From a virus (Duplodnaviria > Caudoviricetes), in IMG/VR virus record IMGVR_UViG_3300010429_001696, positions 129,755-193,754 of that record: 64,000 nucleotides of DNA. The stretch is one strand, 5' to 3'. This document shows positions 6,388 through 64,000 of the stretch, one piece after another. The translations under genes were made by a program, and so were the position numbers. The notes beneath the pieces are model-generated. The model ran no database searches, was not told where the DNA came from, and saw only the letters and a list, made by a program, of their open reading frames with translations. Within the stretch, counting starts at the first letter, position 1. Each line of letters opens with the position of its first letter.

Positions 6388-7110
6388 ATGATTTATTTGA
6401 AACTATATGAACAATTTAATCTAGATGAAGATGATCCTTGGGGTGAGGACGCACCAAGAAAATACACATTTAGTGAGTGGTTTAGAGATAAATATGGAAA
6501 TAGAGATCTTGAAGATGAAGAATATGACGATCTTGAAGATCCGCTAACCATAAAGGTAATTAATTGTTATAATAATTCTCTGACCAGTCTTGGGGGAGTA
6601 GAGAACTTGATAAATCTTAAAGAGTTACATTGCTTTAATAATTCTCTTGTTAGTCTCGATGGAATAGAAAACTTGATAAATCTTGAATGGTTAAATTGTT
6701 CTTATAATTCTCTGACCAGTCTTGGGGGAGTAGAGAACTTGATAAATCTTAAAGGGTTATATTGTTCTAATAATTCTCTAACCAGTCTTGGGGGAGTAGA
6801 GAACTTGATAAATCTTAAAGTGTTATATTGTTCTAATAATTCTCTGACCAGTCTTGGGGGAGTAGAGAACCTGATAAACCTCAAAGAGTTATCTTGTTAT
6901 AATAATTCTCTGACCAGTCTTGGGGGAGTAGAGAACTTGATAAATCTTGAAAGGTTATCTTGTTATAATAATTCTCTGACCAGTCTTGAGGGAGTAGAGA
7001 ACCTGAGAAATCTTGAAAGGTTATCTTGTTATAATAATTCTTTTTCAGATGAATATAAAGAACACTTGAGAAATTATTGTAAAAAAAGAAATATAAGTTC
7101 GAATATATGA
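6388..7110 (+). CDS. leucine-rich repeat protein (22-aa LRRs, internalin/SDS22-like), copy 1
   Basis: About 8 LxxLxCxxNSLTSLxGVENL repeats; N-terminal LKLYEQF and DDPWGE tag. Confidence 0.9.
   Translation: MIYLKLYEQFNLDEDDPWGEDAPRKYTFSEWFRDKYGNRDLEDEEYDDLEDPLTIKVINCYNNSLTSLGGVENLINLKELHCFNNSLVSLDGIENLINLEWLNCSYNSLTSLGGVENLINLKGLYCSNNSLTSLGGVENLINLKVLYCSNNSLTSLGGVENLINLKELSCYNNSLTSLGGVENLINLERLSCYNNSLTSLEGVENLRNLERLSCYNNSFSDEYKEHLRNYCKKRNISSNI
6555..7040 (+). repeat. 66-bp tandem coding repeats (LRR units); second array about 7310-7660
   Basis: Recurrent aataattctctgaccagtcttgggggagtagagaacttgataaatctt. Confidence 0.9.
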
Positions 7111-7730
7111 ACCATTTGAAACTATATGAACAATTTAATCTAGATGAAGATGATCCTTGGGGTGAGGACGCACCAAGAAAATACACATTTAGTGAGTGGT
7201 TTAGAGATAAATATGGAAATAGAGATCTTGAAGATGAAGAAGATGACGATCTTGAAGATCTTGAAGATGAAGAATATGACGATCTTGAAGATCCGCTAAC
7301 CATAAAGGTAATTAATTGTTCTAATAATTCTCTGACCAGTCTTGAGGGAGTAGAGAACTTGATAAATCTTGAAAGGTTATCTTGTTATAATAATTCTCTG
7401 ACCAGTCTTGAGGGAGTAGAGAACCTGATAAACCTCAAAGAGTTATATTGTTATTATAATTCTCTTGTTAGTCTCGATGGAATAGAAAACTTGATAAATC
7501 TTAAAGAGTTACATTGCTTTAATAATTCTCTTGTTAGTCTCGATGGAATAGAAAACTTGATAAATCTTGAATGGTTAAATTGTTCTTATAATTCTCTGAC
7601 CAGTCTTGGGGGAGTAGAGAACTTGATAAATCTTAAAGGGTTATATTGTTCTAATAATTCTTTTTCAGATGAATATAAAAATTATTTAAGAAATTATTGT
7701 ATAGAAAAAAGTATTAAATATATTATATGA
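7107..7730 (+). CDS. leucine-rich repeat protein, copy 2
   Basis: About 6 LRRs; 5' region nearly identical to copy 1 at DNA level. Confidence 0.9.
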   Translation: MNHLKLYEQFNLDEDDPWGEDAPRKYTFSEWFRDKYGNRDLEDEEDDDLEDLEDEEYDDLEDPLTIKVINCSNNSLTSLEGVENLINLERLSCYNNSLTSLEGVENLINLKELYCYYNSLVSLDGIENLINLKELHCFNNSLVSLDGIENLINLEWLNCSYNSLTSLGGVENLINLKGLYCSNNSFSDEYKNYLRNYCIEKSIKYII

Positions 7731-8041
7731 ACCATTTGAAACTATATGAACAATTTAATAATGAAGACGATCCTTGGGGCGAGGAAAGGAAGCCATATAG
7801 AGGAGGAAAAATAGAAATCAGGGATAAAGTTATGCTCATAGATAGAAATGAGGCCAAAATTATACAACATGAAATAGGGTATTATTATTATGGTCAAACA
7901 GTTCTTGATACTGGTGATATTTTTGTGGTAAAGGGGATACATCCAGTATTGGTTCATGATAGACTTGTAAGGGGTTTAAATTTTAATAATAATTGGTCGC
8001 AGGACGTATTATATAACGAAAAAAAATTTAAAAAAATATAA
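7727..8041 (+). CDS. MNHLKLYEQF/DDPWGEE-tagged small protein
   Basis: Shares the N-terminal header of the LRR genes but has different cargo. Confidence 0.75.
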   Translation: MNHLKLYEQFNNEDDPWGEERKPYRGGKIEIRDKVMLIDRNEAKIIQHEIGYYYYGQTVLDTGDIFVVKGIHPVLVHDRLVRGLNFNNNWSQDVLYNEKKFKKI

Positions 8042-12805: not shown

Positions 12806-13372
12806 ATGAAATTTATAAAAAAATTTGACAAACTAGATGAATCTTCTGTATATCCTTCCATTGAGGGATACTTTGATCAAATAAAAGATAAATTACCAGA
12901 TGATGCATCGGATTTTTGTTTGAGAATAAAAGAAGAATTGAGCACCGTTCCATATATTAGCTCTCCAACAAACTCTATACCAGGTTTTTACATAGATATT
13001 TATGACGTAATAATTATCGAATATTATGATAACGGGGAAACATTAAAATTTGATATTCAAAGTAGCTTTGCTGATATATCCAATTATATAACTGCTCAAG
13101 CGGAAAAAGATAAATCTCTAGTTGATGAATTAACCGTAGGGCTAGAAAATGAAGAGCAGGATGATCTTTTTGATTACTACATAGAAGAAGTTTTAGATGA
13201 ATTTGTTGAAATAATGAGAACCGCCGTAGATGATTTATGTCTGCATCCAGATTTTCATAGAGTTTTTTATTTAGATGAAGAAGAAGTGGATGAAAATATA
13301 ATTGTCAGAAGATTTAAACAAAAAATAAAAATAGGCGACTTGCCTTGGCATAAAAAGAAAGAGCAAATATGA
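12806..13372 (+). CDS. hypothetical protein with capsid-targeting-like N-terminus
   Basis: MKFIKKFDKLDES. Confidence 0.7.
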   Translation: MKFIKKFDKLDESSVYPSIEGYFDQIKDKLPDDASDFCLRIKEELSTVPYISSPTNSIPGFYIDIYDVIIIEYYDNGETLKFDIQSSFADISNYITAQAEKDKSLVDELTVGLENEEQDDLFDYYIEEVLDEFVEIMRTAVDDLCLHPDFHRVFYLDEEEVDENIIVRRFKQKIKIGDLPWHKKKEQI

Positions 13373-14580
13373 AAGAAATAGCTTTTTTTGATTTAGATGA
13401 TACTTTATGGAGAATAAAGGATGAATATATTTGGATAATAGATAAAGAAAAACCAAATAAACCACTTGTTGAGTTGGACAAAGTTGAATTCACAATGATA
13501 AAAAATAAGATGTATGTCAAGGATGATATTGCACTGAATTACAATGGACAAAAATTTTATATAAGCAAAGATCTTTTTGATATTTTAAAAAAGAAAGCCA
13601 ATACTGAAAATGTTGAAAGATTTGGTATATCCTTTATACCACTGGTTAAAAAAGAAGAATTGGATAAAAAAGAAATTGAGGTCTTTGTAAAAAATATTGA
13701 GCATTTAAGATATAACAAATTTATTGAAATAGGAGTTTTGACAGCGAGATCCAATCAAAAAACTCACGCTGATTTATTGAACAGATTGAGAATCGAACTT
13801 AAAAAAATTGGTATAGAAATAAGTAAGATATTTTTCATGGGCAACGGTCTCCGACTCGGACACGATTATTACAGCAAAGTAAAAGTTTTATTGGAGCACC
13901 TGATAGGATTTAAAATAATTGATGGTAAATTTTCAAATGAAAAACAAGATTGGTATCAAAAAGTTGATTTCTATGACGATGATGCTAATAACATTGATTA
14001 TGCGAATGATATACAAAAATATTTAAATGACGTTTTGAGAAAAACAGAAGACAACTTATTTAGAATAGTTATAAATAAAATAAAAGAGAATAAGTTGATA
14101 CTAGAAACAAATTTGATAACTGGTAATGAAATTAATCGATTCAAGAGAAAAGTTATTGTTTTAGAAGAGCCTTTGAGATTTCCAATGGTGGATAAATTTA
14201 GCTATTTGAAAAAATTTGAACAATTTAATTTTGATGATCTATCTGATGAAGAACTTTTCGGTGAAGATAAAAAATCAAAATTAATAATAGATATAAAAAA
14301 TAAAATTGAGAAATATGGTAATCTTTCGATACGGGATTTTGCAATAGACCCTTGCGTGTATAATGATGAAATAGATGTGTCTGTCATAGAACAATTATAT
14401 CCTGAAACCGTTTGGATTATGGTATATAGCGGATATGATTTTGAGGATGAAATTGATGGATATGAAACGAGTTATGAAAATTTGACGGAAGAAAATTTAA
14501 AAGAAATATTGTATTTGATAGATGAAGCAATAAAAAATGGTTATATAGACTTAGGGATTTTAAAAAATGATAATGAATAA
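13369..14580 (+). CDS. HAD-superfamily protein fused to a DLSDEELFG-tagged module
   Basis: FFDLDDTL (motif I), VLTAR (motif II), FYDD (motif IV); C-terminal ~120 aa paralogous to 14922..15317. Confidence 0.7.
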   Translation: MKEIAFFDLDDTLWRIKDEYIWIIDKEKPNKPLVELDKVEFTMIKNKMYVKDDIALNYNGQKFYISKDLFDILKKKANTENVERFGISFIPLVKKEELDKKEIEVFVKNIEHLRYNKFIEIGVLTARSNQKTHADLLNRLRIELKKIGIEISKIFFMGNGLRLGHDYYSKVKVLLEHLIGFKIIDGKFSNEKQDWYQKVDFYDDDANNIDYANDIQKYLNDVLRKTEDNLFRIVINKIKENKLILETNLITGNEINRFKRKVIVLEEPLRFPMVDKFSYLKKFEQFNFDDLSDEELFGEDKKSKLIIDIKNKIEKYGNLSIRDFAIDPCVYNDEIDVSVIEQLYPETVWIMVYSGYDFEDEIDGYETSYENLTEENLKEILYLIDEAIKNGYIDLGILKNDNE

Positions 14581-14919
14581 ATGATATTTTTAAAACTATA
14601 CGAACAATTTGATTTTGAAGATCTATCAGACGAGGAGATTTTTGGGAAAGAATCGAACAAAGGACCTTATGATGATACCTTGATATTTGGAAAGAATGGA
14701 CCTGAATTTAAAGCCGGCGATAGAGTCGTTTGTTTTTATCATTCAGATTACAATTATAATATTATAAATAAAATTGGAACCGTTGTTGAATATTATACAG
14801 ATGGGTATTATCATATTTGTTTCGATGATGATGTTAATGGTCACATGTTTTCGGTAAATAATATACCAAAAGGGCATGGATGGAATTTGAAATTTAGTAT
14901 ATTGAAAAAAATAAATTAA
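14581..14919 (+). CDS. DLSDEELFG-tagged small protein (SH3/KOW-like cargo)
   Basis: MIFLKLYEQFDFEDLSDEEIFG; paralog of 57983..58327. Confidence 0.75.
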   Translation: MIFLKLYEQFDFEDLSDEEIFGKESNKGPYDDTLIFGKNGPEFKAGDRVVCFYHSDYNYNIINKIGTVVEYYTDGYYHICFDDDVNGHMFSVNNIPKGHGWNLKFSILKKIN

Positions 14920-14921
14920 AT

Positions 14922-15317
14922 ATGAACAATTTGAAAAAATTTGAGCGATTTGATTTTGAGGATTTATCTGATGAGGATCTTTTTGGGAAAGATGAAAAAG
15001 TTAAAAAGGATTCTAAATCAGATTTAATAATCAATATAAAAAATAAAGTTGAAAAATATGGGGGAAGTCTCTCAATGGCTGATTTGGAGGCGGATTCTTC
15101 TCCTGTTTTTATTGAAAGAAGGCGAGAAATCCATCTTATAGAATATTTATATGAGGAATCCGTTGGCGTCGTGCCATATGGTGGCTATAAATATGAAGAT
15201 GTTGGAAATGAATATGACGTTGAATATGAAGAGTTGGATAAAAAAATCTTAAAAGAAATATTAAATTTATTGGATAACGCAATAGAAAGAGGTTATATAG
15301 AAGAAGATGAAATCTAA
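14922..15317 (+). CDS. DLSDEELFG-tagged small acidic protein
   Basis: MNNLKKFERFDFEDLSDEDLFG. Confidence 0.75.
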   Translation: MNNLKKFERFDFEDLSDEDLFGKDEKVKKDSKSDLIINIKNKVEKYGGSLSMADLEADSSPVFIERRREIHLIEYLYEESVGVVPYGGYKYEDVGNEYDVEYEELDKKILKEILNLLDNAIERGYIEEDEI

Positions 15318-24382: not shown

Positions 24383-24753
24383 GAAAATATTTTAAAAATA
24401 TCCTAACCATTCTTCAAATGATGGTATTCTAGGTAAAGGATGCATATAGTGGATGTATCCATCAAAATCTAAAGCTCCTTCTCCGAATTTTATTTCAACT
24501 TCATCAAAACTCATACACCTTCATTTGTTAAGCAAATTTAAAAAGATTTTTTTAATAAAAAAAATAATATATATGAAATATGAAAAATATAAAATTATAC
24601 GAACAATTGTTCATTCATCATTTTTAAATGTTTCATTGTCTTTTTTTTATTTTTTTTTTGAAAATATACTATTATATATTGATTTTTTTATATTGATTTT
24701 TTTATAAACATTTTTTTATTAATTTTATATATCTTTTAAAAATTATTATCTAT

Positions 24754-25899
24754 ATGGGTTATAAATATATCAAAAATAAACTGCCTTTATCCGGATTTTA
24801 TATTTCTTTCTTTGGCAGCACAATGAACGAGCGTAAAGGTATATACGGAATATCACATCTTATGGAGCATTTACTTTGTAAAGGGCTGGATCCTTATATG
24901 AATTCTTTAGAGCAAGACGGAATAAGTTGGAACGCATACACAAGCAGTCGTGAGATACTTTTTTATATGACAGGTCTCGAAAAAAATGTTAAAAAATGGA
25001 GAAAATTGTTTTATGAAAAAATATCCAATTTTGGTGTGACAGAAGAACAATTCTTGAATGAGAAAAAAATAGTCATTGAAGAATATAAAGATTCTTTTAA
25101 TGATCAGGTGGCTTGGCACTTTGATAATCTTTTTAGAAAACTCTATAATAAATATGATTCCATCGGTCTATTGGAAGATTTGGAAAACTTAACATTTGAA
25201 GATTGTAAAAATTTCTTCGAGTTACAATACTCGAAACCAAATTATATTGTAGATATTTCAAAAAGAAAGGATGAAGATCTAAGTAAATATTTTGAAAGTT
25301 TAGAATATAGCAACAATATGTATGAAAATGAAATTGTTGAGTTTAAACTCAATGAAGATTTTATATACCAAAAAGGAAATGATTATAAAGATAAATCATC
25401 GATTTTGATTTTATTGAAAAATGTTATAGATGGAGACAATGCTTATGTAGATTTTATATCACATATGTTGAGCGGTGGATTGAAATCTCCTCTTTATCAA
25501 GAAGTTAGAGAAAAAAGAGGACTTGTTTATTATATATGGTCTTATCAGAAAGACATAACAAACAGATCTAGCGTTGCTTTGATTCAAACAGAAACATCAA
25601 AAGAAAACTCAAAAGAAGTTGTGGATGTTATATTGAGCATAATAAACAATCCTAAAAGATATATGACAAAGAAAAGATTTAACATTGTCAAAAAATATTA
25701 TAAAATTTATTATGAAAAAGAAAATATTATGTTGCACAATAACGGGCATAAATTTGTGACACCAGAAAATTTTTTGTTAGAGAAGATTTTAAAGGATATA
25801 ACTTATGAAAAAGTTATGGAAGTGTATAATAAATATTTTAAAGATTTTTATGTATCAATAGATTCTGAGGAATTTAAAAATGAACTACTACGACACTAA
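24754..25899 (+). CDS. M16 family zinc peptidase
   Basis: GISHLMEH (HxxEH), NAYTS, SPLYQEVREKRGLVY. Confidence 0.92.
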   Translation: MGYKYIKNKLPLSGFYISFFGSTMNERKGIYGISHLMEHLLCKGLDPYMNSLEQDGISWNAYTSSREILFYMTGLEKNVKKWRKLFYEKISNFGVTEEQFLNEKKIVIEEYKDSFNDQVAWHFDNLFRKLYNKYDSIGLLEDLENLTFEDCKNFFELQYSKPNYIVDISKRKDEDLSKYFESLEYSNNMYENEIVEFKLNEDFIYQKGNDYKDKSSILILLKNVIDGDNAYVDFISHMLSGGLKSPLYQEVREKRGLVYYIWSYQKDITNRSSVALIQTETSKENSKEVVDVILSIINNPKRYMTKKRFNIVKKYYKIYYEKENIMLHNNGHKFVTPENFLLEKILKDITYEKVMEVYNKYFKDFYVSIDSEEFKNELLRH

Positions 25900-51749: not shown

Positions 51750-52055
51750 ATGATTGACGTAAGAGTTGGACACAATATTTTAATCTTACCGAGATTACAA
51801 TATTATATTGAAAAGAGAGATTGGGATGATATGTCCAGTCTTATTGGAAATATTTATACCATTAATAGAATAGAAAAAGCTTCAAATTGGGAAAAAGATG
51901 GTGAGGGCGGGGATATAATATATTGGTTTCGTGATCATAATGAATTAAGTTGGTTTGTCTATAGAGATTGTTTTGAAATCACGACAAGAAAAAGAAAAAG
52001 AAAATTAAATTTAGAAGAAGATCCTTGGGGTGAAGAAAACTGGGGATGGGAATAA
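51750..52055 (+). CDS. small protein ending in the EEDPWGEENWGWE tag, copy 1
   Basis: ORF track. Confidence 0.75.
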   Translation: MIDVRVGHNILILPRLQYYIEKRDWDDMSSLIGNIYTINRIEKASNWEKDGEGGDIIYWFRDHNELSWFVYRDCFEITTRKRKRKLNLEEDPWGEENWGWE

Positions 52056-52432
52056 AATTTTTTGAATTATGGATAGTTATGAAGATATAAAAGAAGGCGA
52101 TGAAGTTTTAATTCTACCGAGATTGGAATATTATATTGATAAAAGAGAGTGGCCTCGTATAATGAAAGATCTCATTGGAAATATTTATGTGATCAAAGAA
52201 ATAGGCTTCGATGAGAGAAATATCACAGATAGTGAAGGAGGATTTGTCATATATTGGATCAAAGATTTTGGAGAACGTTGGTATGTTTATAGAGATTGTA
52301 TAGAACATATAACTAGAAAAAGAAAATTAAATTTAGAGGAAGATCCTTGGGGTGAAGAAAACTGGGGATGGGAATAAAATTTTTTGAATTATGAATAGTT
52401 ATGAAGATATAAAAAAAGGCGATGAAGTTTTG
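51994..52432 (+). repeat. ~115-bp direct repeat (about 51994-52109 and 52316-52431)
   Basis: agaaaaagaaaattaaatttaga...ggaataaaattttttgaattatg..tagttatgaagatataaaa..aggcgatgaagtttt occurs twice; the second begins a truncated third gene. Confidence 0.85.
52069..52377 (+). CDS. small protein ending in the EEDPWGEENWGWE tag, copy 2
   Basis: Paralog of 51750..52055. Confidence 0.75.
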   Translation: MDSYEDIKEGDEVLILPRLEYYIDKREWPRIMKDLIGNIYVIKEIGFDERNITDSEGGFVIYWIKDFGERWYVYRDCIEHITRKRKLNLEEDPWGEENWGWE

Positions 52433-54421: not shown

Positions 54422-56932
54422 GTGGATTATCTATTATCTAAAAAATTTGATGGAACCTTTACAATTAATTTCATTGGTGTCGAAACTCTAACACCAGAAG
54501 ATCCAGTTATGAAACTCCGATTGGCATCACCAATAGTGGGAGTTAAAAAAATTACTGGATACGAACAAATTATAAATGGAGTGATCGACGCATCCCAGTA
54601 TGTTGTTGTTAAATTTAAATGGCAAAATCGATATGATATAGAAATACCTTGTGGAGATTGTTGGAGTGATCTTTTACCCATATCTGCTTTAACTGGTATA
54701 ACAACCATACCGACCGAGCCTTTTGATTTAGAATTATATTTTTATAGAGTTGATGAAAAAGTTGATAGTCTTCTACCAACCCCGATATATGTTGGGAACG
54801 ATGCGACAAGCGTCGCCGTTAAAATAAGTGGAGAATATGAGTTTAATTGGACAGATGGTCCGTTTATTTTAACAAATGAGCTGAGCGATCAAGGGGGCGT
54901 AATCTTATCTCCATCAGATATTTATAAAATTTTCAACATAACAGATTATACTATCTTATCGGATGATAATGATAATTTATTGATTTATTGGCGAGTAACA
55001 CAAGATAATGGAAGAACATATTCTAAATGGGAGCCGCTGACAAAAGAAAATATATCCACTTATCGTTTCAATCAACTTCGTTTTGCTAAAATGCAATATT
55101 TAATAAAATTGATTAATCCTGTATATACACCGATTAATGTTTATGATGTAATTTTGAGTGGCGAGTTTCAAAATATATCAGCCAATTCAATGAAAACAAA
55201 TTTTTATGGTATAAGAGCGGATTGTGTCACAGGACTTTTAAATCCGAACAATACTGGTGTGACGAGCGGTGTAACTACTTGTGCTAGAAACATAGACACA
55301 GGACTACAATCTTATTCACAGGGTAATGGTGTGTTTGCTCCAGCTATGACAAATTACGAGTTGGATATGAATTTTTGGACACAAGGACTTAGTTGCTATT
55401 CTTCTGGACAACCTTCTAATAGTTTGACTAGCTCGGCTATCGCAGCGAGCACCAATTCAACCAGTGGAAATGGTGCATCTTGGAATCCATATGATATAAA
55501 TAAAATAGCTGGCTTTGCCAACACATTAGCTAATCAATTAAATGAAATATTTGCTTGGGAAGTTGATTATCACTTGACTGATCCAGATGAAAATGGCACA
55601 GATTTCATTCTACATGAATATCAGCTATTTAATATAGTGGATGTTAAAAAATTGAAAGTGTTAGTGCCAGATAATAAATTTCCAGATAACACAGTGAAAA
55701 TGAATGCTTTCAGTTTAGAATTATTTGACACATTTGAAATACATATATTAAAAGATGAATTCAAAAGAAAATTTGGAATAGATCGTCGCCCAGCTGAAAA
55801 TGATGTTTTGTTTTTCTGTGTTATAAATCGTTTGTTCTATGTAAAACATGCTCAAATTTATAGAGATATAATGAATGCTGGTTTTTATTATAAAGTTATT
55901 CTCGAAAAATACGAACAAAAAGCCAATATACGAAATCTTTCAGAAGAGTCGAAACAAATGCTTGATATACTTACGAATAACACCACAATGCAAGAATTAT
56001 TCGGAGAAGAAGTTAAAAATGAAGAAGAAAAGATCGCTAATATCGAACAATTTAAACCTTTCACATTTGATCCAATGCGTTATGTGATAAGCAATGATGT
56101 CATTAGAGTACAACAAGATATATTGAACTATGATATAAATTTTTCAAAAACTCATTATGATTTCAAAGACACTGTTGGAAAAACAGCAATTTTTTACAAA
56201 AAGACAGATAATACGCTTGGTCTTTCAGACAATAGAACTTTCATATTTTGGATAAATTTTAATAACGCGTGGGATTCTAATGTTAGACCAACAAGAAACT
56301 CTTGGAAACATTACAACATAGATTCTACTTTAAATTATTGGTTTTTGAACAATTTTGACACAGATACGAATAAGGGATACAGGGTGTGGTATCATAATAA
56401 GAATTTAAACATCCAAATAAATGATAAATTTTATAGTATATCGAACTTGAATTTATTGACAAACATTTGGTACGGAGTAGTAATTATTATGGATCAAAGA
56501 CAAAAAACTATGGATCTAAAAGTATATCAAAGAGATAATGACTATGATATAGTTATGATGCATACTACAACTCAACATATTGTCAGAGTTGATTGGCTTG
56601 ACACGGCCAGTTATACTCAATACATATCGGCTGGATATAAACCAGTGGATAACGAAGAAAAAAAATCATCTACTACGATTTTCAAGACAGTTAAAGAAAA
56701 TTATTATGAAAATATTGAAAATCAATCATTTGAGCACGAGGTAGATTTAACAATTACTGGCTCGAATATAAAGATGACAAACATAAGAATAATGATTGAT
56801 TCGGTGCCTGTTGATGAAATAAATAACTTATTGAATCAATGGATAATAAGAGATTCACAGAGAGTCCTATTGGCCGACAATGCTGACAAAAATATTTATA
56901 CAGATAATTTTGTAAATAAAAATTGGATATAA
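54422..56932 (+). CDS. virion structural protein (neck/head-completion-like domain plus LamG-like C-terminus)
   Basis: 836 aa; D.ILHEY.L...FEIHI.K..F...FG...RP.E.D.LFF pattern like T4 gp14-type neck proteins; inferred. Confidence 0.55.
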   Translation: MDYLLSKKFDGTFTINFIGVETLTPEDPVMKLRLASPIVGVKKITGYEQIINGVIDASQYVVVKFKWQNRYDIEIPCGDCWSDLLPISALTGITTIPTEPFDLELYFYRVDEKVDSLLPTPIYVGNDATSVAVKISGEYEFNWTDGPFILTNELSDQGGVILSPSDIYKIFNITDYTILSDDNDNLLIYWRVTQDNGRTYSKWEPLTKENISTYRFNQLRFAKMQYLIKLINPVYTPINVYDVILSGEFQNISANSMKTNFYGIRADCVTGLLNPNNTGVTSGVTTCARNIDTGLQSYSQGNGVFAPAMTNYELDMNFWTQGLSCYSSGQPSNSLTSSAIAASTNSTSGNGASWNPYDINKIAGFANTLANQLNEIFAWEVDYHLTDPDENGTDFILHEYQLFNIVDVKKLKVLVPDNKFPDNTVKMNAFSLELFDTFEIHILKDEFKRKFGIDRRPAENDVLFFCVINRLFYVKHAQIYRDIMNAGFYYKVILEKYEQKANIRNLSEESKQMLDILTNNTTMQELFGEEVKNEEEKIANIEQFKPFTFDPMRYVISNDVIRVQQDILNYDINFSKTHYDFKDTVGKTAIFYKKTDNTLGLSDNRTFIFWINFNNAWDSNVRPTRNSWKHYNIDSTLNYWFLNNFDTDTNKGYRVWYHNKNLNIQINDKFYSISNLNLLTNIWYGVVIIMDQRQKTMDLKVYQRDNDYDIVMMHTTTQHIVRVDWLDTASYTQYISAGYKPVDNEEKKSSTTIFKTVKENYYENIENQSFEHEVDLTITGSNIKMTNIRIMIDSVPVDEINNLLNQWIIRDSQRVLLADNADKNIYTDNFVNKNWI

Positions 56933-56934
56933 TA

Positions 56935-57264
56935 ATGAAACATATAAAATTATATGAACAATTTGACTTTGAAGACTTTTCTGATGAAGAACTTTTTGGA
57001 AAAGAGACGTTTAAACTCATTTTCAGTGGTCGTAGATTTTATATAGTAGAAAAAATTGAAAATAATATAGTTTTTTTATATAAAGGTTATAAATGGATAT
57101 CTGATGAAAATTTAAAAAAATATTGTTTATTTTGTTTAGAAGAATTGGGAGAAAATGATGAAATAGCAATTTTTATCGGACATAATAATACGAATTACCA
57201 GAAATATTGGGATATTTATACAAAAGATACATTACCAAAAGAAATAAAATATGAATTGAATTGA
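56935..57264 (+). CDS. DLSDEELFG-tagged small protein
   Basis: MKHIKLYEQFDFEDFSDEELFG; start moved to the ATG at 56935. Confidence 0.75.
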   Translation: MKHIKLYEQFDFEDFSDEELFGKETFKLIFSGRRFYIVEKIENNIVFLYKGYKWISDENLKKYCLFCLEELGENDEIAIFIGHNNTNYQKYWDIYTKDTLPKEIKYELN

Positions 57265-57665
57265 AACATATAAAACTATACGAACAATTTCATTTTGAAA
57301 ACATTTTAAATAGAGATGGTTTTCAATTTATATCGCATTCAACTAAAGAAGATTGGGGTGAATCTATTTTAATAATGGAAAAAGAGGGAAAAGCTTTTGG
57401 TCGAATCTATTGGTATAATGATGATGATACTACAGTTTATCTTGATTGGCTCAGTGTAGATAAAGATGCCAGAAAAGGAGGATTAGGGACAATATTACAA
57501 AAAATAAGAGAAGATATTGGTAAAGAATTGGGCGCCAAGTTCGCCTGTTTGTGGGTAAAAAAGGATAGTTGGATGCATGATTGGTATGAAAGAAGAGGAT
57601 ACAAAGATTATATGAATTATAAAGAAGATAAAAATTATATATGGATGCAAAAAACAATTGAATAG
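57261..57665 (+). CDS. GNAT acetyltransferase with capsid-targeting-like N-terminus
   Basis: LSVDKDARKGGLGT (acetyl-CoA motif A), WYERRGY; MKHIKLYEQF header (TTG start). Confidence 0.85.
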   Translation: MKHIKLYEQFHFENILNRDGFQFISHSTKEDWGESILIMEKEGKAFGRIYWYNDDDTTVYLDWLSVDKDARKGGLGTILQKIREDIGKELGAKFACLWVKKDSWMHDWYERRGYKDYMNYKEDKNYIWMQKTIE

Positions 57666-57986
57666 ATGAAGCACATAAAAATATATGAGCAATATGATTT
57701 TGAGGATCTATCGGATGAGGAGCTTTTTGGAAAAGTTTCCTTTAAATTGATCAAGTTAAAAAATGATATATATTTTATATTAGAAAAAATTGAAAATGGA
57801 TATCTTTTTTTATATAATGGATATGAATGGAAAAAAGAAGAATTATATGAAGAGCCCAGCGTTAATATTGAAGATTTGAGTGATGATGATATAATAACAA
57901 CTCATGAAGAAATTAATGGAAATGGATTTTGGATGCGCTGGAATAAATACACGTTGCCAGAAGAAATAAAAGATAAGTTGAAATGA
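57666..57986 (+). CDS. DLSDEELFG-tagged small protein
   Basis: Paralog of 56935..57264. Confidence 0.75.
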   Translation: MKHIKIYEQYDFEDLSDEELFGKVSFKLIKLKNDIYFILEKIENGYLFLYNGYEWKKEELYEEPSVNIEDLSDDDIITTHEEINGNGFWMRWNKYTLPEEIKDKLK

Positions 57987-58327
57987 AACATATAAAATTA
58001 TATGAACAATTTGATTTTGAGGATCTATCGGATGAAGAACTTTTCGGAATAGATAGTAATAAAGGACCTTATGATGATATTTTGATATACGGCGATAGTG
58101 GGCCTAGTTTTAAATGTGGGGATAGAGTTAAAGTAATTAATAATGATGAATTTTATTATGAAGGAAAAAAAGGTGACATTGGTACAGTGATCACATATAG
58201 TGATGGATCTTATTTAGTTTGCTTAGATGATTTTACTGCTGGACATAAAGGAGATCGTGATACAGATTATGAGGACACGGGTGGTGGTTTGTTCCAGAAG
58301 ATCTTGAAAAATATGAAAAAAAAATGA
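57983..58327 (+). CDS. DLSDEELFG-tagged small protein (SH3/KOW-like cargo)
   Basis: Paralog of 14581..14919; possible frameshift near 58270. Confidence 0.7.
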   Translation: MKHIKLYEQFDFEDLSDEELFGIDSNKGPYDDILIYGDSGPSFKCGDRVKVINNDEFYYEGKKGDIGTVITYSDGSYLVCLDDFTAGHKGDRDTDYEDTGGGLFQKILKNMKKK

Positions 58328-58638
58328 AACACATAAAAATATACGAACAATTTAATCTTGATGACTTTTCAGATGAAGAGCTTTTCGGAAATGATGACAA
58401 TTATTTTCCAAAAGAAAATATAGAGAAATATTATTATGATTATAAAGAATTATTCAATCACACAAAATATGATGAAGAATACGGATATACAAATTATGAA
58501 TTATGGACTGAAGTTGGGCAATTGACTCTCAAATATAATCTCACAAGAGACGATGTCAAATGGATACTTGATAATAAAAACACGAGATTTGATAGTGATA
58601 AATTTCTAGAAGATACATATCTTCATTGGGACGATTAA
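58324..58638 (+). CDS. DLSDEELFG-tagged small acidic protein
   Basis: MKHIKIYEQFNLDDFSDEELFG. Confidence 0.75.
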   Translation: MKHIKIYEQFNLDDFSDEELFGNDDNYFPKENIEKYYYDYKELFNHTKYDEEYGYTNYELWTEVGQLTLKYNLTRDDVKWILDNKNTRFDSDKFLEDTYLHWDD

Positions 58639-58963
58639 TTTTAATTAAAAAAAGTTAAAACAGGACTAAAACATTTTAATATATAATAATAAGTTTTTTG
58701 GTTATTGGTAGTTTCGAGTTTAAAGACTTTGGAAATGTTTTTAAAAAAAGCATTAAAGAAATTATCAAAACATAAATAAAAAATAAAAAGAAAAAGTGAG
58801 AAAAGTACCACTCAATAAATTACGCTTTCATTTATTTCCTCAATTTTTATTTGTTTTGACTCGAATATTTCCAATATATCAGAAATCGATATAATTTGGA
58901 ATTTGTTTATTTTTTGGCGCGCGAAAAGTAAGCATTTCACAAATAAAAAATAAAAATTATATT

Positions 58964-63473: not shown

Positions 63474-63803
63474 ATGAAACACTTGAAATTATATGAGCAG
63501 CTTGATTTTGAGGATCTATCGGACGAAGAACTTTTTGGTGATGAGAAAGATTTATTTCTAGGTAAAAATGGAAATACACTATATGTTTTATATGATCCAG
63601 AATGCAAATCTGGAAGATTTAATAGATATTTGATGTATCGTGACCGATCAGATTATTATCCTTCGTATCCAAGAACTATTTTTACTCTGAATGTTTTGCC
63701 AGAAGAAAATTCTAAGATTGGATATTCATCTTATCAAGGTGGTATTCATTACACAACATGGAAAAATTTGGATCCAGAAATAAAGAAAAGAATAAAATTA
63801 TGA
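63474..63803 (+). CDS. DLSDEELFG-tagged small protein
   Basis: MKHLKLYEQLDFEDLSDEELFG. Confidence 0.75.
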   Translation: MKHLKLYEQLDFEDLSDEELFGDEKDLFLGKNGNTLYVLYDPECKSGRFNRYLMYRDRSDYYPSYPRTIFTLNVLPEENSKIGYSSYQGGIHYTTWKNLDPEIKKRIKL

Positions 63804-63900
63804 AACATATAAAATTATACGAGCAATATGATTTTGAAGATCTGTCAGACGAGGAGTTATTCGGTAAACAAGAAAAAGATTTATTTTTAGGTGAAAATGG
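63800..63900 (+). CDS. partial DLSDEELFG-tagged protein running into low-complexity end
   Basis: MKHIKLYEQYDFEDLSDEELFGKQEKDLFLGENG then a poly-G run. Confidence 0.6.
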
Positions 63901-64000
63901 GGGGGGGGGGGGATTTTTATTTTTTTGTTTTTTTTAATATTTTTTTTGTTGTTTTTTTATTTGTTTTTATGGATGGGGTGGGAAAAAAAAAAAACCAAAA
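63899..64000. other. low-complexity terminal sequence, probable sequencing/assembly artefact
   Basis: Poly-G followed by T/G and A homopolymers interrupting a coding frame. Confidence 0.7.

Follow-up and report, generated by a model that had tools for sequence, protein, structure and literature searches.

A conserved 22-residue header on arrayed, exchangeable phage genes as a possible two-part capsid-loading tag

Introduction

Why would a phage place one short peptide in front of many otherwise dissimilar proteins? The question is raised by the final 64 kb (hereafter the window) of a viral contig of 193,754 bp and 28% GC, IMG/VR record IMGVR_UViG_3300010429_001696, in which arrays of small genes begin with a constant 22-residue sequence, the header, followed by a variable remainder, the cargo. 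We suggest, at a probability that we put at roughly 0.55, that the header is a two-part tag for capsid loading and clipping, carried on swappable cargo genes. From sequence we infer packaging, a cut site and delivery into the host. Part 1 (residues 1-10) would be the counterpart, in this lineage, of the T4 capsid targeting sequence (CTS): it would bind the scaffolding core during prohead building, and a glutamate-specific prohead protease of the T4 type would then clip it off, the likeliest cut being behind Glu8 of L-Y-E. Part 2 (residues 11-22), which is acidic with L-F-G at its end, or is exchanged for an acidic P-W-G substitute, would be a second, separately conserved linear motif that either stays on the mature protein or guides its contact with protease or scaffold. 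The cargos (small beta-barrel domains, a GNAT acetyltransferase, leucine-rich repeat (LRR) proteins and orphans) would ride in the capsid and enter the host with the DNA, and the arrays would be co-transcribed, their cassettes being gained, lost and swapped, at times with the header as the crossover point.

The principle of such a tag is already known from T4 and from giant phages with families of head paralogs (PMC3012670, PMC5694885). The T4 CTS is MKTYQEFIAE (PMC8442874), in which residues 4 and 7 target the protein and residues 8 and 10 direct processing (PMC9026906). Its carriers are IPI-III and Alt, internal proteins of T4, and T-even phages are described as polymorphic at their internal-protein loci (Mullaney and Black 1996; Repoila et al. 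1994, as cited in PMC3012670 and PMC9026906). In phiKZ, 201phi2-1 and SPN3US, many of the packed head proteins, among them tandem paralog families with as many as 20 members, undergo cleavage after glutamate by a protease related to gp21 (PMC5694885, PMC9026906). Three things appear to be undescribed: a two-part form of 22 residues, the scale on which this clade uses it, and the recurrence of an acidic L-F-G motif after a glutamate site in unrelated phages; we found no published account of header motifs in a phage context.

The header is the unit under selection

An initial annotation of the window had listed nine header copies, and all nine were found in place: one inside the open reading frame (ORF) at 13369, where it begins at 14197, and the others at 14581, 14922, 56935, 57666, 57983, 58324, 63474 and 63800. 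A degenerate 28-nucleotide header pattern matched nine times in the window and not once in 100 shuffles. Across the 194-kb contig, a header profile found 15 full copies (E <= 7e-12), seven half copies, which retain the first 10-13 residues and then continue differently, and several decayed ones; about ten further copies lie upstream of the window. Within the window, the copies beyond those first listed are the half header on the GNAT gene at 57261, a decayed copy at 24580, and the genes at 6388, 7107 and 7727, in which the first 10 header residues are unchanged and a DDPWGE-type (acidic D-D-P-W-G-E) second half follows; these three likewise count among the half copies. The main array and the gene ahead of it are as follows.

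54422..56932, plus strand: neck-protein homologue of 836 amino acids (tblastn), its stop 2 nucleotides ahead of the array
56935..57264, plus strand: header gene (header 56935-57000) with a cargo of superfamily B/C (header profile, cargo alignment)
57261..57665, plus strand: half header (first 13 residues, TTG start, TTGA overlap) on a GNAT acetyltransferase (header hidden Markov model, E 2e-5)
57666..57986, plus strand: header gene (header 57666-57731) with a cargo of superfamily B/C (header profile, cargo alignment, AlphaFold)
57983..58327, plus strand: header gene (header 57983-58048) with an SH3-like 'GD[KR]V' cargo of superfamily A (BLASTP; weak PHROG 5785 match)
58324..58638, plus strand: header gene (header 58324-58389) with an orphan cargo (header profile)

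As had been described, the array genes abut or overlap by the 4 nucleotides ATGA (TTGA at 57261), and we found no ORFs between them.

The header had been thought to be conserved at the DNA level, which would have made the nucleotide sequence itself the conserved feature. This was not borne out. Among the 105 pairs formed by the 15 full headers, the proportion of synonymous sites that differ (pS) is 0.70 and that of non-synonymous sites (pN) is 0.10; pairs share 52-55 of 66 bases (about 80%), irrespective of whether they come from a common array or cargo family. Synonymous sites are thus saturated, selection keeps the peptide and not the DNA, and the DNA likeness follows from coding. The peptide is the selected unit of the header. 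Its codon usage is a separate observation: all copies use codons that are rare for the genome, for example TAC, GAG, TCG and the CTN leucines, and the GC content at third codon positions is 0.30 in headers, compared with 0.23 expected from their amino acids and 0.20 in the cargos.

The suggestion that the header could act as a recombination handle did hold, in two concrete cases. The headers at genome positions 37701 and 38027 (counted on the whole contig) are identical over 66 of 66 nucleotides, while their flanks are unrelated and their cargos belong to different families. The gene at genome 105105, on the minus strand, and the gene at 7727 in the window are alike at 59 of 60 nucleotides upstream of the ATG, and share the 3' part of an LRR gene at lower identity; their headers have the first 20 nucleotides in common (27 of the first 30), after which identity collapses. 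Past this breakpoint, the L-F-G half and a B-type cargo follow in 105105, the P-W-G half and an SH3-like cargo in 7727. These alignments indicate that the header has served as a crossover site. The same two exchanges are what speaks for reading the header as nothing but a DNA homology arm for cassette shuffling, the peptide being incidental. We consider that explanation very improbable, because synonymous sites have drifted to saturation while the amino acids were held, and because headers that are typically about 80% identical offer patches too short and interrupted for a maintained recombination substrate. Given the substitution pattern, use as a crossover point would be a by-product of header conservation and not the reason for it.

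Conservation is not even along the peptide. In 23 copies from four contigs, Glu8, Asp14, Ser16, Phe21 and Gly22 are invariant, and the most conserved part is the acidic second half (residues 11-22), in which four of these five residues lie. The second half is therefore not a mere spacer, and the earlier proposal that it is a motif of its own is supported: besides being the best-conserved part, it is exchangeable for the DDPWGE type and recurs before internal modules in unrelated phages, as described below. In AlphaFold models of one member of each beta superfamily, residues 1-23 have a predicted local distance difference test score (pLDDT) below 50 and the remainder forms small beta domains (for 57666, a beta-rich cargo, mean pLDDT 63.5; for 57983, a member of superfamily A, mean 52.3). 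The header is accordingly modelled as disordered and apart from the cargo fold. A fold name for the B/C model was sought and dropped, VIA-align giving only Z <4, to MBT/SH3-like barrels, which is too weak.

Likeness to the T4 capsid signal

Part 1 of the header aligns with the T4 CTS as K-x-Y-x-x-F, three residues further from the start. By sequence pattern, an aromatic pair three residues apart is kept among the 23 copies: Tyr7 in at least 90% (Phe in two copies) and Phe or Tyr at position 10 (Leu in one). Residues 6-8 read L/I-x-E in 13 of the 15 full copies, around the invariant Glu8. The header thus has in common with the CTS a short N-terminal leader with two aromatics three apart and, putatively, a glutamate cut site, and, more broadly, a constant leader in front of diverse mature proteins that vary between related phages of T4-type lineage. 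As with T4 Alt, there are enzymes among the cargos (here GNAT and LRR). The differences are equally clear. The CTS has 10 residues, compared with 22 in the header with its second, strongly conserved acidic L-F-G part; the register of the cut site differs; the header cargos are mostly acidic and the T4 internal proteins basic; the header occurs in about 20 strict or about 40 loose copies per 194 kb and the CTS in a handful in T4; and the header, unlike the CTS, also has internal copies in fused ORFs.

The position of the header is that of a leader. All stand-alone copies on the contig start at the initiator codon, and when a 30-column header profile was run against 1.84 billion representative proteins, 37 of the 43 matches (E <0.001) began within the first six residues. 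A looser form of the leader is found within the first 14 residues of 40 of the 245 contig genes, where 2.5 would be expected from internal windows.

The lineage also speaks for the proposal. The terminase is of the T4 gp17 type, with its nearest match in LR756501, a 735-kb uncultured phage (68% identity), followed by other huge uncultured phages at about 40% identity and then Tenacibaculum phage PTm1 and Sphingomonas phage PAU, and by this gene the header phage is assigned to the T4 type. LR756501 is the closest complete relative and has, in T4 order, genes for a portal (PHROG 213, 2e-66), a head maturation protease of 807 residues (PHROG 207, 5e-27) and a gp23-type capsid protein (Pfam Gp23, 83 bits). 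Its protease is fused to a scaffold with Y-I-A-E-type repeats, and the fusion (L028:7914-10337) contains nine to fifteen repeats of [YF]-x-E-Y-[IV]-[AG]-E, every one of which is a potential T4-type cleavage site. T4 gp21 cuts after hydrophobic-x-Glu, and the LR756501 protease with its repeats fits a protease of that specificity. PDB sequence searches with the LR756501 protease region and the neck-like protein as queries gave no match.

The setting of the main array also speaks for capsid loading. In tblastn searches, the 836-residue protein encoded just ahead of the array is 60% identical to its LR756501 counterpart. With the annotated neck proteins of Tenacibaculum phages PTm1 and PTm5 it shares 27% identity along 160-190 residues; it also matches the annotated neck protein of Chryseobacterium phage MA9V-2 (16% coverage) and gp88 of Sphingomonas phage PAU, whose gene adjoins the PAU terminase gene. 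In LR756501, the neck homologue is followed by six abutting small genes with T4-like leaders (one reads M-I-K-T-F-D-E-F-I-N-E), and this array has acidic D-P-Y-G-E-E motifs at N-terminal, internal and C-terminal positions.

Cargos and their distribution among relatives

The remaining header genes of the window, all on the plus strand, extend the range of cargos.

6388..7110, plus strand: first header half and DDPWGE-type second half on an LRR protein (Pfam LRR_4, 8e-30)
7107..7730, plus strand: second LRR gene, with a PWG-type header (header profile, BLASTP)
7727..8041, plus strand: PWG-type header on an SH3-like cargo, with the homology breakpoint inside the header (cargo alignment)
13369..14580, plus strand: fusion of 403 amino acids with a 276-residue N-terminal part, an internal header (14197-14262) and a cargo of family D
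14581..14919, plus strand: header gene with a cargo of superfamily A (cargo alignment)
14922..15317, plus strand: header gene with a cargo of family D (cargo alignment)
63474..63803, plus strand: header gene with a cargo of superfamily B/C (cargo alignment)
63800..63898, plus strand: header gene truncated by the junk contig end (sequence)

The recurrence of cargos between arrays was confirmed by BLASTP, 14581 and 57983 being 50% identical (E 7e-16) and 56935 and 57666 being 39% identical (E 5e-10). That the cargos are unrelated to one another was true in part: GNAT, LRR, the two beta superfamilies and the orphans cannot be aligned with each other, but several of the cargos first listed as unrelated do align within the two superfamilies. 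Superfamily B/C, of about 85 residues, comprises 56935, 57666, 63474, genome 37701 and 105105, and five members from a relative. The SH3-like superfamily A, with a G-D-[KR]-V strand, comprises 14581, 57983, 7727, genome 72968 and three more outside the window, and family D the cargo behind the internal header at 14197 and that of 14922. The others are LRR proteins, one GNAT protein (57261-57665; Pfam Acetyltransf_1, 3e-8; PHROG acetyltransferase, 1e-6) and many singletons. Pfam and PHROGs gave only weak, non-significant matches for families B/C and D and the orphan 58324, and only weak PHROG matches for superfamily A; the ESM Atlas held no usable match for 58324 or 14922. Judged by alignment, the cargo set is neither a single paralog family nor a collection of wholly unrelated proteins.

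This composition bears on the simplest alternative, an ordinary tandem-duplicated family of small genes in which the N-terminus is best conserved, the C-termini have diverged and nothing is being addressed. Many cargos do fall into two alignable superfamilies, and the arrays do resemble tandem duplications with decay. On the other side, the header stands on GNAT and LRR domains of independent origin, its second part can be exchanged, it is modelled outside the cargo fold, and pN is only 0.10 over its 22 codons while cargos are unalignable between families; in relatives, moreover, other unrelated proteins (80-200 residues) begin with part 1 only. We therefore think a plain paralog family quite unlikely.

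Three related viral fragments have 17, 13 and 6 header matches, and a 1.7-kb metagenome contig is another four-gene header array. Array content differs between relatives and the cargos do not align as one family, so that comparison does not bear out the refutation of the initial annotation's idea by invariant arrays of simple paralogs. Searches of the three fragments turned up no neck gene and no full capsid gene, which leaves LR756501 as the only relative for comparing orthologous arrays. The header protein 57983 had no match in 50,697 deposited phage records. In one relative, a single ORF of 298 residues (L004 9634-10530) consists of three units of header plus SH3-like domain, its internal headers having lost the first residues and kept [IL]-K-E-Q-F and the acidic part. 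A tblastx scan for synteny was uninformative, being swamped by LRR repeats.

Arrays of a constant motif and variable modules are known from other systems. In the orphan cassettes of polymorphic toxins (CdiA-CT, Rhs), a constant junction motif precedes variable C-terminal modules, the cassettes are arrayed, recombination takes place at the junction, and behind every variable module stands an immunity gene belonging to it. The header arrays are alike in having a constant motif before variable modules, in being arrayed and in recombining at the junction; they differ in that there are no immunity genes between the units, no large delivery protein and no recognised toxin domains. Giant phages of the phiKZ type are alike as large phages that pack many tandemly encoded proteins, but they belong to a different lineage and their propeptides, often of more than 100 residues, have S/A-x-E motifs and no common header sequence.

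The acidic motif in other phages

Weak, repeated profile matches led from part 2 to unrelated phages of about 45% GC, in which proteins have a T4-like leader followed by S-D-x-E-L-F-G, and in which the acidic L-F-G tag is repeated ahead of each module of large multi-module proteins. In the window, each module is instead a small gene in its own right, bearing a tag of its own. All 25 of the acidic-LF[GA] tags counted, in these phage proteins and at two viral loci, have a hydrophobic-x-Glu within 13 residues upstream, compared with 8.0 expected after shuffling. At one locus, a gene for a ClpP-type head maturation protease (PHROG 94, 2e-47) is directly followed by five genes in a row, of about 430-730 residues, that have N-termini of this kind, which ties part 2 to head genes independently of the header phage.

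Related motifs occur elsewhere on the contig. The genes at 51750-52055 and 52069-52377 of the window are twins of 101 and 102 residues with the same acidic tail, E-E-D-P-W-G-E-E-N-W, so the P-W-G motif is used at C-termini too. The contig has 13 motifs of the P-W-G type, six N-terminal, three C-terminal and four internal.

Taken together, the motifs allow a broader idea, which we hold only tentatively: an aromatic-Gly acidic motif (L-F-G, P-W-G or P-Y-G) after hydrophobic-x-Glu might be an undescribed portable 'cut here and load' label, common to unrelated large phages with different head proteases, placed at N-termini, between modules or at C-termini, and loading tens of proteins (about one gene in six on the contig).

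The header might instead be an uncleaved docking peptide, its acidic aromatic-Gly motif recruiting many different proteins to one intracellular hub, such as the sliding clamp of the phage, a factory for replication or assembly, or the SH3-like domains of the cargos, with no role in the capsid. This would agree with part 2 being the most conserved piece, with P-W-G and P-Y-G motifs standing at N-terminal, internal and C-terminal positions, with the tandem motif and SH3-like units of the 298-residue ORF, and with a header modelled as disordered. The clamp-binding peptides of T4 gp43 and ligase end in LDFLF[GD] (PMC6212786), and so resemble the header as short, acidic-hydrophobic sequences of a T4-type phage with an L-F-G end. 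The T4 peptides are C-terminal or in a loop, however, and the header is N-terminal or before modules, and the T4 gp45 clamp-binding motif needs four hydrophobic contacts, L, F, L and F (PMC6212786), of which the first two positions are acidic in the header's S-D-E-E-L-F-G. Docking would also leave unexplained the strictly N-terminal part 1, its match to the CTS, the constant hydrophobic-x-Glu before the tags in other phages and the tagged genes right after a head protease gene, and we regard it as rather unlikely.

A leader for secretion or maturation, either of the double-glycine type or removed outside the capsid by a phage M16 or Lon peptidase, is a further alternative. Double-glycine leaders have the consensus L-S-x-x-E-L-x-x-I-x-G-G and are handled by an exporter with a C39 peptidase. 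Part 2 does contain L-S-x-x-E-L, and the contig encodes a Lon-type protease as well as an M16 peptidase with a decayed header just upstream. The header has no Gly-Gly at the right spacing, though, no Peptidase_C39 match was found on the contig, and the cargos, at 80-220 residues, are folded domains and not peptides. A supposed pair of M16 peptidases beside another array was rejected on inspection, since one of the genes encodes an M28 peptidase and the other a protein without assignment. The odds of a leader of this kind seem to us slight in the extreme.

Weighing the capsid-loading proposal

Several observations weigh against a capsid-loading and clipping tag. The hydrophobic-x-Glu register is unlike that of T4, the site overlapping the aromatic pair rather than following it; Lys stands at the third residue ahead of the cut (P3) in two of the 15 full copies, and Asp stands at P3 of the T4-equivalent cut position. 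Prohead protease, portal and a full capsid gene were not found on the 194-kb contig, where the Pfam models Peptidase_S77, S78, Portal_T4, Gp23 and Terminase_6C gave nothing above threshold. The contig is thus probably an incomplete fragment, despite a completeness estimate of 92%, and the type of its protease is taken from LR756501, which itself is without the 22-residue header. The phages that share part 2 use a ClpP-type and not a gp21-type protease. Most cargos are acidic, unlike the basic internal proteins of T4, confidence in the AlphaFold models is low (mean pLDDT 52-64), and with about 16% of the genes tagged the packaged proteome would have to be unusually large.

Should the tag work as we propose, the capsid-carried, host-delivered proteins of a clade of huge, uncultured Bacteroidota phages could be read from sequence, an inventory that usually requires virion proteomics on a phage in culture. 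The T4 capsid-targeting principle would then extend to phages far from T4, together with a second conserved motif, and a protein address would double as a crossover point for the exchange of cargo genes. Like the T4 CTS before it, the tag could also be tested as a means of packing foreign proteins.

Other features of the contig

Some header remnants are short and decayed, at genome 73263, 74253 and 104468 and at one site in the window:

24580..24627, plus strand: decayed header of 15 codons followed by a stop, upstream of an M16 peptidase gene (pattern/profile)

This copy lies 126 nucleotides upstream of the M16 (insulinase-type) peptidase gene (region 24580-25899). The 276-residue N-terminal part of the fusion ORF (13369-14196) had no family match in Pfam; read by eye, it contains F-D-L-D-D-T-L, of the D-x-D-x-T type typical of HAD-family phosphatases. 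An in-frame ATG at 14185 could start the internal header unit of this ORF separately. At its end (63899-64000 of the window) the contig consists of runs of poly-G, poly-T and poly-A, apparently an artefact of assembly or sequencing, by which the final header gene is cut short.

Two proteins recall the capsid protein of LR756501. An ORF of 236 residues at genome 114820-115530 resembles the C-terminal third of the gp23-type protein (25% identity, E 5e-8) and contains a P-W-G motif; it might be a fragment derived from the capsid protein, or else a decoration protein. In the related fragment G002 (L033:1417-1716), a protein of 99 residues has a T4-like leader, K-F-D-N-F-I-F-E, a lysine-rich tail and, between them, a segment that matches the LR756501 capsid protein close to its N-terminus (residues 69-108) at 58% identity; this small protein may be a basic internal protein.

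The sequence T-A-A-T-A-T-A-T-A-A stands 11-14 or 27-32 nucleotides ahead of the start codon in 32 of the 245 genes, for example at 58677-58686 of the window and at genome 37685, 72952 and the upstream region of 92251-94527. Among the genes that it precedes are the terminase gene and those that open several header arrays; we regard it as a candidate promoter of the phage, one whose leader would be very short.

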